Shown here piece by piece: positions 2-9,048 of a stretch of DNA of 64,000 nucleotides. A model generated the notes under the pieces. The model was given only the letters and a program-made list of their open reading frames with translations. It ran no database searches and was not told where the DNA came from. The DNA comes from an uncultured Actinomycetes bacterium (GTDB taxonomy: Bacteria > Actinomycetota > Thermoleophilia > UBA2241). The position numbers were made by a program, and so were the translations under genes. Within the stretch, counting starts at the first letter, position 1; every line of letters begins with the position of its first letter. Location: NCBI GenBank assembly GCA_963725665.1, contig CAVRZA010000011.1:576001-640000 (forward strand), in the 5' to 3' direction.

Positions 2-1423
2 GAGATCGCGCTGAACATCCTGCTCGCTGGCCTGACGATCACCTTTCTCGTCGCGGTCGTCACCTTGCGGCCCTACGGACTCTATGCGCACACCAGCCTT
101 TCGCAGACGGTGCTGATCGCACTGCTCGTCGCCCTGATCCCGACCACGATCGGTGCCCTGCTCTCAGCGATCGGCATCGCCGGTATGGACCGGCTCGTGC
201 AGCGCAACGTGCTAGCCATGTCAGGGCGCGCAGTCGAGGCGTCGGGCGACGTTGACGTGTTGCTCCTCGACAAGACCGGCACGATCACGCTGGGCAATCG
301 ACAGGCGGTCAACTTCATCCCCGCTCCCGGTGTGGACGAGCGGGAGTTCGCCGAGGTCGCGCAGCTGGCGTCGTTGGCCGATGAAACCCCCGAGGGTCGT
401 TCCATCGTCGTTCTCGCAAAGGAACGCTTCAACCTGCGTGAGCGCACCCTGGGGGAAGAGGAAGTCGAGTTCGTGCCGTTCACTGCCGTCACACGTATGA
501 GCGGCGTCAACCTCGAGGGCAGCATGATCCGCAAAGGCGCCGCCGACGCAGTAAGAGGCTTCATCGAGGAACGCGGCGGCACCGCCATCCCCGCCGAAAT
601 CCACGCGACCGTACAGAGGGTCGCCGAGGAGGGCGGGACGCCCCTCGTCGTCGCCAAGGACGGCTCCGCACTCGGTGTCATCCAGCTGAAGGACGTCGTC
701 AAGGGTGAGCTGCGTGAGCGCTTCGACGGCATGCGGAAGATGGGCATCCGCACCGTGATGATAACGGGCGACAATCGAGTCACCGCAGCTGTGATCGCCA
801 AGGAGGCCGGTGTCGACGACTTCCTTGCGGAGGCAACGCCGGAGGCAAAACTCGCACTCATCCGCGAGGAGCAGGCGCGCGGCCGTATGGTCGCCATGAC
901 CGGTGACGGCACTAACGATGCCCCGGCGCTGGCCCAGGCCGACGTGGGCGTGGCCATGAACGCCGGGACCTCCGCCGCCAAGGAAGCCGGCAACATGGTC
1001 GACCTCGACAACAACCCGACGAAGCTGATCGAGATAGTAGAGGTCGGCAAGCAGCTCCTGATCACCCGCGGCGCCTTGACCACGTTCTCGATAGCCAACG
1101 ACGTGGCCAAGTACTTCGCCATCCTGCCGGCGATGTTCGCCTTCACGTATGCGACGCATCCCGGCGAGCGCGGGCCGCTCAACTCGCTCAATATCATGCA
1201 CCTGGGAGATCCGAAGAGCGCGATCATCTCCGCGATCATCTTCAACGCCCTGATCATCGTGGCGCTCATCCCCCTCGCCCTCAAAGGCGTCCGCTACCGC
1301 GCCATCGGCGCCACTGCGCTGCTGCGGCGCAACCTCCTGATCTACGGGCTCGGCGGCATCGTCTTGCCGTTCGTGGGGATCAAGCTGATCGACCTCGTCG
1401 TCCACAACGTGCTTGGAGCTTAG
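2..1423 (+). CDS. kdpB: K+-transporting P-type ATPase subunit B (5' end outside window)
   Basis: DKTGT phosphorylation motif, TGDN, GDGTND, LIPTTIG and [10 protein letters not shown]; frame open from the window start. Confidence 0.97.
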
Positions 1424-1531
1424 TGCAGCGGTAGCGCGGCCCGTCGAGTGTGTGGCAGGGCAATGGCCGGTCCTCCGTGCGGCAGAGCGAGCAGAGTCCC
1501 AGCATCTCTTTTGATGCTGTCGTGGAGCGCA

Positions 1532-1596
1532 TTAAGCGCATCTTTATGCCGGCAGAACTGCCCTTTACGGGTGATTAACGCGGTGCCGGGTAGCTT
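1532..1596 (+). promoter_or_regulatory. Putative KdpE-type promoter: four phased boxes plus -10
   Basis: TTAAGC(1532)-N5-TTTATG(1543)-N15-TTTACG(1564)-N5-TTAACG(1575)-N10-TAGCTT(1591); AT-rich island; resembles E. coli KdpE site TTTATA-N5-TTTACA; same layout at 6653-6717. Confidence 0.7.
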
Positions 1597-1689
1597 CTGC
1601 GGGCGGGCTGCGTCCTTGGCGGCGCAACCCGCTGTCTCGTGCGCCGTTTTCGCGGGGCGCTGCACCGGACGTCAAGCAGGAGGCGGGCT

Positions 1690-3525
1690 GTGGCGGTCAC
1701 AGCTCTCAAGAAGAGCCCAACGAATGAGCGGGTCGGATTCCTCTCGCGCCTCGAACTGTTCAAGGGACTCGACCAGGACGAGCTCGAGCGGATAGCAGCG
1801 GCGATCTCGGTGCAGATCGCCGCTGCCGGAGAGGCGGTCCAAGTGGAGAGCGGCATCCCCGGCGACCACCTGTTCGTTGTGCTTGACGGCACCCTCGAGC
1901 TCATCCACAAGGGCGCCGTCGTGGCCATCCTCTCCAAAGGGGAGGTGTTCGGACACTCTACCCTGCTCACCGGACTGCCACCCGAGTTCACGACACGTGC
2001 GGGAACCCCTTCCACGCTCTGGCGCATCCCGAAAGACATCGCCGTCGACCTCCTGAGTCGGCCTGCAGGGGTGAGGTTCGTCGCCGACACGCTGCGCGAG
2101 CAGCTGATCCAAGCGGCGCGATCCACGAACGGGGCTGCCGATCTCGCTGCGCGGCCGGTGGTGTCGCTGGTGCGCGGAGCACCCGTGTTCTGCGAGGCGG
2201 ACGCGACGATCCGTGAGGCGGCGACGCTCATGAGCGCCAGCAGAGCGAGTGCGCTCTTGGTGCGGACGGTCGGGGGTCTTGGCATCGTCACTGACTCCGA
2301 CCTGCGCGAGAAGGTCGTGGCCGGCGACGTTCCCCGAGACGCCGCGGTCACTGCCGTCATGACGACCCCGGTGGAGAGCGTCGCTGCCGACCGGCTGGGT
2401 CCCGAGGCCGCGGTCCAGATGATGGCCGCCGGCGTCAACCATCTCGTTGTCGAGGACAAGGCCGGCAGGCTCGTCGGCGTCCTGTCGGCCGCGGACCTCG
2501 TTTCCCTCGACGCGCGCAGCCCCTTCGCCCTGCGGCGCCGGATTCAGGAGGCACGGAACGAAGACGATCTTGTGGCGGCATCCAGGGATCTACCTGCCCT
2601 GTTCGCCGAGCTGCTCGACGCCCGGGTCGATGCCCCTGCTGTGGCTCGGATCCTGACCGTGCTCTGCGATGCCATGACAGTGCGTCTGCTGGAGCTCTTC
2701 TTCGACCGGCATGGCCAGCCACCAGTCGGCTACGCCTGGCTTTTGTTCGGCAGCAGCGCCCGGAACGAGCTCACTCTGGCCTCCGACCAGGACAACGGCA
2801 TCGCCTACGAGGACGGCGACGACCCCCGCGTCGAGGACTACTTCCGCGAGCTGGCCGAGGACGTCAACGACGGGCTGGTCCGCAGCGGCTTCGCCGCCGA
2901 CCCCCACGGCACGGTGGCGCAGAACTGGCAGTGGCGCCTGCCCCTCTCGCTGTGGCGCTCCGTCTTCGCCCGCTCGCTCGAGGACAGGGACGTCAATCGC
3001 CTCGCCCGTGCCAGCGTCGCCTTCGACTTCCGGCAGCTGGCCGGGGACTTGGCGGTGGCCGGGCCACTGACCGAGATCATGCGCGAGGCGCCCGGCCACC
3101 GCCGCTTCATGAGCGGTCTCGCCCAGCTCGCGACGCGCAACCCCCTGCCGTTGTCTGGCCTGCGCCAGCGGGTGGCGGGTCGGCTCGACGTGAAACGGGA
3201 GTGCCTGCGGCCGATTCAGAACTTCGCCCGCTACCAGGCCCTGCTGGCGGGCATCAGCGCGCACTCCACCCTAGATCGACTCGCGGGGGTGCGCGAGGCG
3301 GGCCTGCTGGACCGTGAGAGCGAGCAGTCGCTGAGCGACGCCTTCACGATCCTGCTGGGCCTGCAGCTGCGACATCACGGCGACGCCCTGGGCGAGGGGC
3401 GCCCCCTCGACAACGAGCTCTACGTGGAGAGCCTTCGCCCGCTCACACGGGCCAGCCTCCAGGAGGCGCTGCGCGTGGTGGCGGCCACACAGCGGCGCTT
3501 CCCGCGGCTGCCGGCCCTGGGCTGA
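1690..3525 (+). CDS. cNMP-binding + CBS pair + DUF294 putative nucleotidyltransferase
   Basis: GGAGG RBS then GTG at 1690; N-terminal cNMP fold (LFVVLDG...GEVFG), CBS (GIVTDSDLR), GSSARNELTLASDQDNG nucleotidyltransferase motif, DUF294_C-like tail. Confidence 0.9.
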   Translation: MAVTALKKSPTNERVGFLSRLELFKGLDQDELERIAAAISVQIAAAGEAVQVESGIPGDHLFVVLDGTLELIHKGAVVAILSKGEVFGHSTLLTGLPPEFTTRAGTPSTLWRIPKDIAVDLLSRPAGVRFVADTLREQLIQAARSTNGAADLAARPVVSLVRGAPVFCEADATIREAATLMSASRASALLVRTVGGLGIVTDSDLREKVVAGDVPRDAAVTAVMTTPVESVAADRLGPEAAVQMMAAGVNHLVVEDKAGRLVGVLSAADLVSLDARSPFALRRRIQEARNEDDLVAASRDLPALFAELLDARVDAPAVARILTVLCDAMTVRLLELFFDRHGQPPVGYAWLLFGSSARNELTLASDQDNGIAYEDGDDPRVEDYFRELAEDVNDGLVRSGFAADPHGTVAQNWQWRLPLSLWRSVFARSLEDRDVNRLARASVAFDFRQLAGDLAVAGPLTEIMREAPGHRRFMSGLAQLATRNPLPLSGLRQRVAGRLDVKRECLRPIQNFARYQALLAGISAHSTLDRLAGVREAGLLDRESEQSLSDAFTILLGLQLRHHGDALGEGRPLDNELYVESLRPLTRASLQEALRVVAATQRRFPRLPALG

Positions 3526-3719
3526 GTCGTGCCGCAACAGATGGTCATGGCAGAGGCGCTGTTGTCCCACCTCTGGGGCGACTCTCAGCGCTCGCGGGTC
3601 CTATTCCACACTCCCTTTGCGGCGCTCTGGGCGCTCAGACCGCGTCATGATCGCGCCGACCGGGCTCACAAGACGATACTGTGAGGATGCGTCAGAGCGA
3701 CTTCGTCGATGGGGTGTGG

Positions 3720-3763
3720 GCGGACGGGCCCGCCGAGCCGTGAGGTTCGGCGGGCCCGTCCGC
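3720..3763. other. 20-bp hairpin with GTGA tetraloop
   Basis: GCGGACGGGCCCGCCGAGCC-GTGA-GGTTCGGCGGGCCCGTCCGC, one G-U pair, no U-tract. Confidence 0.7.
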
Positions 3764-3808
3764 GAACAGCTGGCGGCACGTGTTGTGTGAGGAACATCGC
3801 CAGCGGGG

Positions 3809-3817
3809 TGCTACCAT
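3809..3817 (+). promoter_or_regulatory. Extended -10 promoter candidate for kdpE
   Basis: TG-C-TACCAT about 130 nt upstream of the kdpE start. Confidence 0.45.
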
Positions 3818-3948
3818 ATACAGGGGGGAATAGAGGACGGTCTCTGTCAGCACGGGTCCGTTGTGCCGGGAGGCGCGGCCAACCGATGCACGCACCACCC
3901 TACGGCTGCGCGTGCGGGATGCCGGTTTAGGCCGGCGCGGAGGGGGCA

Positions 3949-4662
3949 GTGAGCGGAATCCCCGAACGTCCGACTCGCATCCTTGTCGTCGACGACGAGG
4001 AGCAGATACGGCGCGCCGTTGGCTCGATTCTCCGTGCCAGAGGCTATGCACTTGACCTTGCGGCGACTGCCCACGAGGCGCTGCTCACCGCCATCGACCA
4101 TCCGCCCGATCTCGTCGTGCTCGACCTCGCGCTGCCCGATCGCAGCGGCATCGAGGTCTGTCGTGAGTTGCGCTCGTGGACGAGTGTCCCAATCCTCGTT
4201 CTGTCGGTGCGCTCTGCTGAGCACGACAAGATCCAGGCCCTGGACGAGGGGGCCGACGACTACCTGACGAAGCCCTTCTCGGCGGGAGAACTGTTGGCGC
4301 GCGTGCGCGCCCTCCTGCGACGGGCGGCGTCACGGACGATACCGCCGCCCGTGGTGGAGGTGGGCGATCTCGTGGTCGACATCGCGCGGCGGCGCGTGAC
4401 TCTCGCGGGCGACGATGTATCCCTCACGCCGACCGAGTTCGACATCCTCGCCTATCTGGCCCGCAACGCCGATCTCGTCGTGACGCAGCGTCAGATTCTC
4501 GAGGAGGTATGGGGACCTGAGTGGGCCGAAGACGCGCAGACGTTGCGCGTGCACGTCAGCCACCTACGCAGGAAGATCGAGCCGACGCCAAGCGGCCGTC
4601 GCTACATCATCACGGAGCCGCGCATAGGCTTTAGGTTCTCGACCGCTGAGGACTCTACTTGA
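3949..4662 (+). CDS. kdpE: OmpR-family response regulator, KdpE-like
   Basis: ILVVDDE, LDLALPD, GADDYLTKPF, LTPTEF, LRVHVSHLRRKIE, TEPRIGFRF; kdp context. Confidence 0.88.
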   Translation: MSGIPERPTRILVVDDEEQIRRAVGSILRARGYALDLAATAHEALLTAIDHPPDLVVLDLALPDRSGIEVCRELRSWTSVPILVLSVRSAEHDKIQALDEGADDYLTKPFSAGELLARVRALLRRAASRTIPPPVVEVGDLVVDIARRRVTLAGDDVSLTPTEFDILAYLARNADLVVTQRQILEEVWGPEWAEDAQTLRVHVSHLRRKIEPTPSGRRYIITEPRIGFRFSTAEDST

Positions 4663-6232
4663 CCCGTGACCGTATCGGCAGCGAGACGGTGAAGCGGGCC
4701 CCTGTGGCCTGTGCCGGCTCCACCCAGACCTCGCCGCCGTGCGCTTTGACGATCTCACGAGTGATAGCGAGGCCGAGGCCGGTACCGGAGGGGGCTTTCG
4801 TCCCGGCGCGCTGCCCCCGGTAGAATTTCTCGAAGATCCGCTCCCGCTCCTCCTCGCCGACGCCGGGCCCCTCGTCCTCGACCCACATCTCCACTGAGCC
4901 CACACCAGCTCTCGCGCCCACTCGCACGGGCGACGACTCGCCCCCGTAGATGATGGCATTCTCGATGAGGTTCTGGAGGACGCGCGCCCATTGCACGAAG
5001 TCGACCTCGATGAGAGGCAGGTCATCGGGCAGCGAGACCTCCACGCGAGCGCGCTGGTGGGCCGGAAGGGCGTCCGTGCTGGCGGAGACGATGTCGGAGA
5101 GCTCGTAGAGGTCCAGTGACGGTTCCCACGAGCGGGCCTCGAGCCGTGAGAGATCGAGCAGTGAGTTGATGCTGTTGTTCAGACGGGCGATGTCGTCGAC
5201 GATGCCGCGCAGTTCGTCGTGGACGAGGCGCTCGTCCCAGGCGACATCGCTCTCGAGGAGGTTGCTGACAGTTGCAGTGAGGGCCGCCAGCGGCGTCTTG
5301 AGCTCGTGCGACACAGAAGAGAGCAGACTCGATTTGAGTCGATCCGCCTCCCGCAGCGCCTCGGCGCGGGTCGCCTTGGCCTGAAGGTTCTGGCGCTCGA
5401 GAAAGACGCCGATCAGGTTGGCAAGCGATGCCATGAGCCGCGCCTCGGCAGCGTCATACGGGTGCCCGTTGGGCCGGCCGCGCACGGCGAGCACACCCGT
5501 GACGCCCGCGCCCGAGTGGAGCGGGATGAAGGTGCCATTGATGCCTACGAAGGCCTCAGCTGCCGGTTCCCGTAAGAAGGAGGCTCCTTGGAGTTGCTCC
5601 TGTCGATGGCTCGCTGGAAAGCCGAGCGTGCAGTCGTGGCTGTAGGCCCACTGAGCTCCGTCCACAGTGTCTCGGTCGGGCGGCCCGGAAGGTAGCGAGG
5701 CGCAGAAGGACAGCAACCCGCTATCGCTGCCTATGAAGAGCGCCGCCGAGGATGCGCCCACGACATCGATGATCTCTTCGAGGACGGTGTAGGCCATCGT
5801 CTCGGTGGACGTTTCCGAGACCAAGCGGGCGCTCAACCTGTTGAGCACTGCAGTCTCATGCTCTCGTGCGTGGGCTCGCTCCTCGCGGTTCCGCATGCGA
5901 CCTGTTTGCACCCCCATGGCCAGACCCACGGCGAGGAAGGCCAGCAGCGACAGGTAATCCTGGGGATCCCTCACCACGAGGGTGTGGTAAGGAGGGAGAA
6001 AGAAGAAGTCCCAGGCGAGGAAGGCGAGGATTGCGGCGACCACCGCCGGCCCCGTGCCGCTCGCCCCCGCGACCAGGACGACTATGAGAAGGTAGAGGAG
6101 CGCCCACTGCCCCTTGGCGAAGTGGTCGCGGCCAGGGAGAAAGATGGCCGTCGACACTGCGATTGCCAGGACGGCGAGCACGTAGCCGTGACGGGCGAGT
6201 CGCCTCTGCAGGTCTTTGACCGTGACCCTCAT
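4655..6232 (-). CDS. kdpD: KdpD-like sensor histidine kinase (DUF4118 TM region + GAF + HisKA + HATPase), lacking the N-terminal KdpD/Usp domains
   Basis: WDFFFLPPYHTL, SVSHELKTPL H-box, NLIENA, DEGPG, GTGLGL; TAGAGT -10 at 6247-6242 just upstream of the ATG. Confidence 0.85.
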   Translation of the reverse strand: MRVTVKDLQRRLARHGYVLAVLAIAVSTAIFLPGRDHFAKGQWALLYLLIVVLVAGASGTGPAVVAAILAFLAWDFFFLPPYHTLVVRDPQDYLSLLAFLAVGLAMGVQTGRMRNREERAHAREHETAVLNRLSARLVSETSTETMAYTVLEEIIDVVGASSAALFIGSDSGLLSFCASLPSGPPDRDTVDGAQWAYSHDCTLGFPASHRQEQLQGASFLREPAAEAFVGINGTFIPLHSGAGVTGVLAVRGRPNGHPYDAAEARLMASLANLIGVFLERQNLQAKATRAEALREADRLKSSLLSSVSHELKTPLAALTATVSNLLESDVAWDERLVHDELRGIVDDIARLNNSINSLLDLSRLEARSWEPSLDLYELSDIVSASTDALPAHQRARVEVSLPDDLPLIEVDFVQWARVLQNLIENAIIYGGESSPVRVGARAGVGSVEMWVEDEGPGVGEEERERIFEKFYRGQRAGTKAPSGTGLGLAITREIVKAHGGEVWVEPAQATGARFTVSLPIRSRVK

Positions 6233-6382
6233 GCCAAACACACTCTATCGCTGACGGAGGCCCCGGTGGACCTGGCAGACAGTGCCGACGGGGAGCCAGC
6301 ACACGCGGCTGCAGCGCGTGTGTGCTTGGATTTCAGGAGCGAAGCTCAGAAAGGAAGCCCTTGAAGGGCGAGCTTCCCGGGC

Positions 6383-6616
6383 TCAGCGCGCGCGATAGGC
6401 CGTCACGGCGGTGCGCCGCTCGGGCGAGCGGCTGAGCTTGCCGCGGACGACTTCGGCTGGCTTGCGTCCGAGCCGGTGAACGCTGACCCTCGCGCGCTGA
6501 CGAAGAGGTCGGACAGTGGACTTCTCGAGGAGGACCATGGCCGCATACGTGAGTCCCAGCACCCACGCTGTCGCGGCCGCAAACAGAAGCACGTCGATGA
6601 TAAGCTTCACGTCCAA
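6383..6616 (-). CDS. Small single-TM protein (77 aa) with basic tail
   Basis: Hydrophobic IIDVLLFAAATAWVLGLTYAAMVLL then Arg-rich tail; RBS-like GGGGA/GAAGG; directly downstream of a KdpE-type promoter. Confidence 0.6.
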   Translation of the reverse strand: MDVKLIIDVLLFAAATAWVLGLTYAAMVLLEKSTVRPLRQRARVSVHRLGRKPAEVVRGKLSRSPERRTAVTAYRAR

Positions 6617-6652
6617 CCTTCAGTCCCCAAGCCAAGTAGGCGATTCGTAATT

Positions 6653-6717
6653 AGGCTACCCGTGGGTGTGTTAAGGACGTGTGAAGCGAACGCACCAGAA
6701 CATAAAGGTTCTGTTAA
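6653..6717 (-). promoter_or_regulatory. Putative KdpE-type promoter: four phased boxes plus -10
   Basis: Minus strand TTAACA(6717)-N5-TTTATG(6706)-N15-TTCACA(6685)-N5-TTAACA(6674)-N10-TAGCCT(6658). Confidence 0.7.
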
Positions 6718-6822
6718 GACGCAGCGCCCGTCCGGGCCCCACGATGTCCGGCAAGTAGTAGCGCGTTAGGCGTCGCTGGCCCCGCGCGACGATCGGCCGG
6801 GCCTCCGCGCCTCGCGCATCAT

Positions 6823-7344
6823 TCAGGCGGCGCGCCGGCGGCCTTGTTGATCCGGTCCGGTGTCCGGTCGCGGGACGATGCCGCCCACGCGCTGCCTGTA
6901 GTCGCGATAGTCGTCGCCGAAGACGGCTTCAAGGTGCGCCTCTTCCCTCGGTATCAGGAGTCGGTACAGGCCGTACGCGACGAACGGGATACTCAGGCCG
7001 GGCCACGAAGCGACGACGATGACGACCGCCGGGCAGACCAAGAAGATGTAGGCCGCGTAGATGGGGTGGCGTATGTGCCGGAAGGGGCCGTCGGTGACGA
7101 GTCGTCCAGTGGCCCCCGCCTCGCGCACCGCCGTGATGGCGCGCACGTAGAGGAGGCCGGCTGCGACGAGCAGGATGACGCTCACGAGGCGCAGCGCGCC
7201 GTTGTGCAGCGCCGCGATGCGGAGCCCCGGAGCGGCGCGGTCGACGGCCACCACCAGCACGATGTAGGCCAGTGCAAGCGTGACCAAGAGCGGGCCCACG
7301 CCCATGGTCGAGCGCGAAGGGTTGAAGTAGACGCGTCGAGCCAT
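6823..7344 (-). CDS. Isoprenylcysteine carboxylmethyltransferase / PEMT family membrane protein
   Basis: LVTDGPFRHIRHPIY and REEAHLEAVFGDDYRDY motifs. Confidence 0.85.
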   Translation of the reverse strand: MARRVYFNPSRSTMGVGPLLVTLALAYIVLVVAVDRAAPGLRIAALHNGALRLVSVILLVAAGLLYVRAITAVREAGATGRLVTDGPFRHIRHPIYAAYIFLVCPAVVIVVASWPGLSIPFVAYGLYRLLIPREEAHLEAVFGDDYRDYRQRVGGIVPRPDTGPDQQGRRRAA

Positions 7345-7494
7345 GACGAGCGCTTGATTCCCGCAGCGCGGTCTAGGCAACGCGCCGGGCGTTTGCGCGG
7401 CGGTCGTCGTGATCGACGACCGCCGCATCCCTCGGTGTCAGTTCGGAGCTCGTCGCGCCGACTGACCGGTCGGCGCGACCGAGCCGGAGACTCC

Positions 7495-9048
<1,554 letters not shown>

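Follow-up and report, generated by a model that had tools for sequence, protein, structure and literature searches.

This work concerns the kdp potassium-pump locus of an uncultured Actinomycetes bacterium and, in particular, two promoters, sites d and e, present in a window of 64,000 nucleotides (C11:576001-640000). Each of them carries four TTNA boxes at one fixed spacing in front of a -10 element. From their sequence, we think it likely that they belong to a local KdpD/KdpE regulon of five promoters that depend on an activator, each of which would be occupied by two dimers of phosphorylated KdpE (KdpE~P). Both strings of boxes had been reported in the initial annotation of this stretch, and each is present exactly as it was given there:

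1532..1596, + strand: four-box promoter d, with TTAAGC at 1532-1537, TTTATG at 1543-1548, TTTACG at 1564-1569, TTAACG at 1575-1580, GGG at 1588-1590, the -10 TAGCTT at 1591-1596 and a predicted transcription start site (TSS) near 1603.
6653..6717, - strand: four-box promoter e, with TTAACA at 6717-6712, TTTATG at 6706-6701, TTCACA at 6685-6680, TTAACA at 6674-6669, GGG at 6661-6659, the -10 TAGCCT at 6658-6653 and a predicted TSS near 6646.

In this layout, the TTNA boxes are stepped by 11, 21 and 11 bases, and 10 bp lead from the last box to a TAnnnT -10 element preceded by GGG. The genome (3.73 Mb, 68% G+C, 12 contigs) was scanned on both strands (7.4 Mb). With the layout in its loosest form (12 fixed bases, TTNA at offsets 0/11/32/43), we found exactly five complete matches genome-wide, sites a to e, all inside C11:572219-582717, a stretch of about 10.5 kb that contains both kdp operons, kdpE and a kdpD-like gene. 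Matches at 11 of the 12 bases were observed in two further places, both near the end of contig C4, and the matches printed there are AT-rich. When 1,323 spacing layouts were scanned genome-wide, 11/21/11 gave five matches, 64 others gave one each and the remainder gave none; it is the only layout tried with more than one match. A weight matrix built from the box columns only scored the five sites at 36-45 bits, with site e as the genome maximum (44.7 bits) and site d as third of the five (38.2 bits); the best genome position beyond them, at 18.3 bits, is the reverse strand of site d. In addition, a strict 61-nt pattern (the four boxes plus GSGTA) has two matches in the window and none in 100 shuffles. 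Such a layout lies far beyond chance.

The spacers had been described initially as unrelated, and the box periods and the distance to the -10 as identical. Indeed, mean pairwise identity of the sites is 0.74 over the 24 box columns and 0.34 over the 32 spacer columns, for an expectation of 0.27 from composition alone. Since the boxes are alike and the spacers lie near the composition level, the sites share selected positions rather than recent common descent. All 20 boxes of the five sites have the leading TT, an A at position 4 and a 5-bp spacer inside each pair. The half-site consensus is TTNAYR with an 11-bp step, arranged as two head-to-tail pairs per promoter, and box 4 is nearly always TTAAC. 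The boxes leave out one 11-bp unit between the two pairs, the box scores at offsets 21, 22 and 23 being negative throughout the five sites. The 11/11/11 layout has no match in the genome and 10/11/11 has one; the step between the pairs is 21 bp and not the constant 11 bp of contiguous tandem-dimer arrays of the PhoP/GlnR type.

Two-box matches of at least 16 bits number 29, of which 19 fall outside the kdp locus, and we make no claim on them. Strong direct repeats TTAAGC/TTAACA/TTAACG at 11-bp steps lie at C2:489243-489270, and at C2:396261-396280 a TTAAGA pair overlapping its own reverse strand adjoins an OmpR-type regulator gene (C2:396311). These two- or three-box repeats of contig C2 are probably operators of other OmpR-family regulators.

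An extended Kdp regulon with two promoters had been proposed in the initial annotation, together with a genome scan that was expected to give a match upstream of kdpFA. The layout is indeed common to several promoters, but they are five and not two, and the same four-box was found before kdpF-kdpA (site c, C11:572762, 3.2 kb ahead of the window). The genes of the window that belong to this arrangement are the following:

2..1423, + strand: 3' part of kdpB1, the last gene of a kdpF-kdpA-kdpC-kdpB operon that begins ahead of the window.
1639..3525, + strand: protein with a cNMP-binding domain, two CBS domains, DUF294 and DUF294_C (PF00027, PF00571, PF03445, PF10335).
6383..6616, - strand: pep77, a 77-codon open reading frame (ORF); the encoded protein has a single hydrophobic helix at its N-terminus and a basic tail.

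Behind site c come a 27-codon ORF, kdpF, kdpA, kdpC and kdpB. The whole kdpB1 gene matches TIGR01497 kdpB with 1055.8 bits (cutoff 527.9), its window portion carries HAD hydrolase domains, and Pfam KdpA and KdpC matches lie upstream. Site d precedes the cNMP-CBS-DUF294 gene; site e precedes pep77, and the kinase gene starts 140 nt after pep77. Sites a and b both belong to the head of the second kdp operon and stand before genes for small membrane peptides, site a before an 86-codon one-helix peptide ORF and site b before a 26-codon hydrophobic peptide. The 86-codon ORF is a clear member of the kdp-leader peptide family of the relatives (profile E 7e-7). This second operon, also ahead of the window, is divergent, on the - strand, and consists of kdpF2, kdpA2 and kdpB2, then kdpC2 and a separate kdpD N-terminal/Usp gene, hereafter KdpD(N)/Usp; a P2-type ATPase gene comes next. 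Beyond the five sites and their reverse-strand shadows, no four-box of at least 5 bits was found for the second operon's own leader or for kdpE.

The candidate regulator and its putative kinase are encoded within the window:

3949..4662, + strand: KdpE-like response regulator, with E. coli KdpE (4KNY) as best structure match.
4655..6241, - strand: short KdpD-like histidine kinase with Pfam DUF4118, GAF, HisKA and HATPase_c.

The adjacent regulator had been taken for KdpE from the start, and we identified it as a KdpE orthologue, with 4KNY as its closest structure and KdpE as its best NCBIfam model. Compared with solved structures, it scores 223 bits with E. coli KdpE (E 2.6e-65) and 174 bits with the next family. 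The two proteins align across 221 residues and R193, R200 and T215 are kept; according to excerpts of PMC3264566 (the papers cited here were drawn on in part), these three residues are required for DNA binding and R193 is specific to KdpE. This is the sole KdpE-like protein of the genome, the others being at most 44% identical. The kinase, also present as the only copy in the genome, covers positions 395-883 of the 895 of the NF007793 KdpD profile. It corresponds to the C-terminal half of KdpD and lacks the N-terminal sensor part (KdpD/Usp); the fusion of PF02702 and Usp to membrane, GAF and kinase parts that makes a full-length KdpD is absent from it. The second kdp operon ends with the separate KdpD(N)/Usp gene, which carries frameshifts here; the kinase and this separate protein appear to work like a split KdpD.

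The boxes themselves resemble those of E. coli. The half-site TTTATA-N5-TTTACA quoted for E. coli in the initial annotation agrees with what is printed in PMC3264566, where, in the part used here, it is given as TTTA(T/C)A with a 5-bp spacer, an invariant leading TT and a footprint from -72 to -50. As in the E. coli kdpFABC operator (S1/S2; 4KNY, 4KFC), the sites described here are 6-bp AT-rich direct repeats with a 5-bp spacer and a leading TT, one of them is located before the same organism's kdpFABC genes, and the orthologous regulator keeps the three DNA-binding residues. In M. smegmatis, the 22-bp minimal KdpE motif of PkdpF is a single pair, which the consulted part of PMC5401905 calls unlike other KdpE motifs; in our own reading, it becomes TTGATG-N5-TTTACG on the other strand. 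The same source reports that the M. smegmatis kdpDE promoter is not bound by KdpE.

We then considered the position of the boxes relative to the -10 element. For this purpose, we used a set of 37 family sites selected by box score alone: the five of this genome and 32 others scoring at least 27 bits in 14 loci. The columns 7-15 nt past box 4 read G (33 of 37), G (25), G (31), T (33), A (37), three variable positions and T (32). Since these columns are conserved in sites chosen by their boxes alone, they argue independently for the unit being a promoter. Between box 4 and TAnnnT, four of the five local sites have 10 bp and site c has 9 or 10 bp, and the distance is kept in the 37 family sites. 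No sigma-70-type -35/-10 pair was found in window 1300-7000. When the TSS is taken as about 7 nt past the -10, boxes 1-2 extend from about -71 to about -55, near the footprint of E. coli KdpE, and boxes 3-4 from about -39 to about -23. From the centre of one pair to that of the other there are 32 bp, or about three helical turns, and both pairs would therefore face the same side of the DNA.

The pho box of PhoB is stated to sit '10 bp upstream of the -10' (PMC1906773, in the extract used). As in the pho box, the 11-bp direct repeats here end 10 bp before a TAnnnT -10 in the place of the -35, and a -35 hexamer is absent. PhoB is a different regulator with another recognition sequence, and multiple pho boxes are contiguous whereas an extra 10 bp separates the two pairs here. 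Binding of at least two head-to-tail dimers is known for actinobacterial regulators of the OmpR/PhoB family: tandem dimers of M. tuberculosis PhoP (two, four or six PhoP) have been solved, with displacement of the contact between sigma-A region 4 and the -35, and two-dimer complexes are cited for GlnR in the same paper (PMC11825685, consulted in part). A similar arrangement is proposed here from sequence, but those dimers join tandemly on successive boxes whereas the four-box skips one 11-bp unit. Compared with E. coli KdpE, described in part of PMC5934670 as a single-target regulator with one site by genomic selection (SELEX), the differences are two pairs instead of one per promoter, the proximal one apparently replacing the -35, five promoters instead of one target and boxes that are more degenerate (TTNAYR).

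The invariant GGGTA could instead mark a sigma factor of the SigB/F type. KdpE would then still bind the boxes, but a SigB- or SigF-type sigma reading GGGTA would transcribe, and both the general-stress sigma and K+ limitation would be needed. GGG stands right before TA in all five sites and in most of the 37 family sites, and the genome encodes a sigma factor of the SigB/F/G family (TIGR02980, 296.3 bits, cutoff 234.35). Moreover, the M. smegmatis kdpF promoter has been likened to SigF promoters, of consensus GTTT-N15-17-GGGTA (PMC5401905, same part). However, no GTTT lies 15-17 nt upstream of GGGTA in the sites, this position being taken by box 3 and its spacer. TAnnnT also fits the actinobacterial housekeeping -10, in front of which the GGG could act as an extended -10. 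We consider transcription by such a sigma factor unlikely.

The layout was then searched in relatives. The genome studied here is the sole member of its genus among the genomes compared, and its family consists of metagenome-assembled genomes (MAGs). The loose pattern was found in 15 of 41 related genomes and in 11 of the 24 genomes of the family other than this one, against two matches for a reversed-pattern control; with a middle step of 22 bp as a spacing control, we observed four matches in two other genomes and none in this one. In 20 related genomes, we examined 20 kb around kdpE (less at contig ends), and all 20 loci hold at least one site of at least 18 bits within 10 kb, for 44 sites altogether. 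The genes found behind these sites are that of a conserved peptide (about 76 aa), which leads into kdpF-kdpA2B2C2-kdpD(N), the kdpA1C1B1 genes, and that of a P2-type ATPase of 963 aa; in genus g2, a single locus holds six sites in one genome and seven in another. The strict 61-nt pattern occurs at only 10 places in 185,579 species (one genome each), all in MAGs of uncultured Actinomycetes/Actinomycetota.

In 12 loci of the relatives, the four-box beside kdpE is followed by a conserved peptide of about 72-88 aa that has one helix and a strong Shine-Dalgarno sequence, and in two genomes of genus g10 a different peptide of 49 aa comes before the P2-type ATPase. Neither has a Pfam or NCBIfam match where tested.

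A different OmpR/PhoB-family regulator could bind the four boxes, the link to K+ being then a coincidence. Direct repeats of TTNA with an 11-bp step are a shared feature of this family, the genome has at least seven further OmpR-type regulators with 36-44% identity to KdpE, and the loose pattern also catches sites of other regulators outside the family of genomes, for example four TTCACA-type boxes in genome G035. On the other hand, all five sites lie in the kdp locus with none elsewhere, sites stand beside kdpE in every one of the related loci, and the half-site equals the KdpE half-site published in PMC3264566 (in the part used). The boxes also change along with the recognition helix of KdpE. 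Among the 37 family sites, TT is present in 36-37 of 37 for boxes 1-3; genera with the recognition helix EDRQTLRAHVSN have TTCAC/TTGAY boxes and those with EDAQTLRVHVSH have TTTAT/TTAAC boxes. This covariation, seen in few independent lineages, fits KdpE as the binder, and we regard another regulator as highly improbable.

In the five loci of genus g6 that were examined, no kdpA/kdpB match was detected less than 10 kb away from kdpE. TTCAC/TTGAY boxes form a four-box there that lies a few hundred bases past the kdpE stop and points back at kdpE, and a similar one is found elsewhere before a small membrane peptide and a transporter of the amino-acid-permease family. The KdpE of genus g6 may control a different transporter.

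Several observations weigh against a KdpE regulon that includes sites d and e. Conservation upstream of orthologues had been proposed as a check in the initial annotation; the layout is kept beside kdpE and before the kdp operons, but promoters d and e have a counterpart in none of the 20 related loci. No DUF294 homologue is present within 10 kb of kdpE in these 20 loci, nor is there a four-box upstream of the kinase gene, so that conservation gives no argument for the function of sites d and e. Genus g2 has a weaker four-box just after kdpB1, before the gene for an unrelated 245-aa HNH_repeat protein. The regulator scores 235.6 bits with its top NCBIfam model, NF007820 KdpE, under the cutoff of 325, and the -10 of site c is poor (AACATG, or GAACAT with a 9-bp spacer).

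Sites d and e might thus be copies of a kdp promoter that were moved by a local rearrangement and are inert or incidental, with the DUF294 gene and pep77 outside the regulon. Both sites are particular to this genome, the locus has undergone rearrangement compared with its relatives, the kinase gene being inverted and set apart from kdpE, and it has partly decayed, kdpC2, kdpD(N) and the P2-type ATPase being frameshifted. However, boxes and -10 are kept between unrelated spacers, and sites e and d are first and third of the five by score. In addition, an ORF preceded by a Shine-Dalgarno sequence starts 36-94 nt after each of them, with GC by codon position like that of genes. The broken P2-type ATPase has no four-box of at least 5 bits here whereas relatives carry one, which indicates that unused sites do decay in this locus. 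Inert copies appear to us very unlikely, and promoters controlled by KdpE remain our preferred reading.

In the DUF294 protein, all four Pfam domains score over their cutoffs in the order PF00027-PF00571-PF03445-PF10335. The start of its gene is likely the GTG at 1690, behind AGGAGG (1678-1683). The protein is predicted to be a GlnD/GlnE-like nucleotidyltransferase; DUF294_C is grouped with the C-terminal domains of GlnD/GlnE in the consulted part of a survey of the HEPN superfamily (PMC3710099). A literature search for a biochemical function of DUF294 proteins gave only this survey, which is not proof of absence. Elsewhere, the genome has paralogues of 60% and 47% identity plus one broken copy, and the genome-wide weight-matrix scan detected no four-box at these other paralogues, so that a single paralogue has come to stand behind a KdpE-type promoter.

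For pep77, GC by codon position is 0.71/0.51/0.79, resembling that of neighbouring genes. No Pfam or NCBIfam family was found for it, and its match to the profile of the relatives' kdp-leader peptides (11.3 bits, E 0.72) does not demonstrate that it is a member. Only weak terminator-like hairpins were detected in the pep77-kinase gap by a consensus scan, and transcription from site e may possibly read through past pep77 into the kinase gene. Folding compared with shuffles gave z = 0.98 for the kdpB-site d gap, 0.25 for the DUF294 leader and -1.39 for the pep77-kinase gap; we rejected terminators or structured leaders in these three regions, none being more stable than shuffles.

Since sites d and e share the four-box of the pump promoter, the DUF294 enzyme and pep77 are probably switched on together with the potassium pump. 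In the scheme that we infer from sequence for binding, stoichiometry, activation, the K+ signal and the start sites, the short KdpD-like kinase would phosphorylate KdpE under K+ limitation, and two KdpE~P dimers would bind each promoter and recruit RNA polymerase. The proximal dimer would substitute for the -35, as PhoB does at the pho box, and the distal dimer would stabilise the proximal one. The kdpFACB pump would be turned on in this way, as would the DUF294 nucleotidyltransferase from site d, pep77 from site e, perhaps together with the kinase gene that follows, and the two small membrane peptides heading the second kdp operon.

One may also imagine a post-translational branch of the K+ response. 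The nucleotidyltransferase induced by KdpE~P, gated by a cyclic nucleotide and by adenine nucleotides, the latter acting via the CBS domains, would nucleotidylylate a target. The one-helix peptide, likewise induced by KdpE and encoded in front of the truncated KdpD, would act back on this kinase within the membrane, as MgrB does on PhoQ. We find such a branch rather doubtful; if true, it would give a first physiological context to the widespread, uncharacterised DUF294 (COG2905) proteins.

KdpE regulons beyond kdp have been proposed earlier, for example by chromatin immunoprecipitation sequencing (ChIP-seq) in Caulobacter (bioRxiv 10.1101/2023.07.05.547876, consulted in part). A two-dimer or multi-site KdpE operator was not described in what our literature search returned, which is not proof that none is in print. 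What appears new, as judged from the genomes compared, is a fixed double-pair grammar with a one-turn gap, apparently confined to one actinobacterial family, and its putative cargo, made up of small membrane peptides, together with a P2-type ATPase in the relatives and with a DUF294 nucleotidyltransferase and the kinase-linked pep77 in this genome. A compact five-promoter KdpE regulon seems to exist here, in comparison to the textbook single-target KdpE of E. coli (PMC5934670, same part). Because no other site of the genome reaches 20 bits, the grammar is specific enough to find regulon members from sequence alone. It would tie to K+ limitation an uncharacterised DUF294 signalling enzyme, several unannotated one-helix membrane peptides and the P2-type cation ATPase of the relatives. 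It also offers a natural test case for dimer spacing (32 bp here versus a contiguous 22 bp) and activation in the OmpR/PhoB family.

A scan of C11:566001-578000, which covers sites a to d and not e, gave no Rfam match at E up to 0.1, and a riboswitch or other RNA control of kdp was rejected on this basis. Beyond site e, and without a four-box, the window contains on the - strand a gene for a methyltransferase-like membrane protein of the ICMT/PEMT family (6823-7428) and a DEAD-box helicase gene (7495-9048). The frameshifted stretch at the distal end of the second kdp operon and beyond it, C11:562900-567700, lies 8.3-13.1 kb before the window start: kdpC2, the KdpD(N)/Usp gene and the P2-type ATPase gene are each split over 2-4 reading frames compared with intact relatives, and kdpA2 and kdpB2 look intact. 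These frameshifts reflect either local gene decay or an assembly error. Finally, the first operon (C11:572923-577423, to window position 1423) has the order kdpF-kdpA-kdpC-kdpB instead of the usual kdpFABC, as in genus g2, and an extra hydrophobic ORF of 27-29 codons precedes kdpF in each of the two operons.

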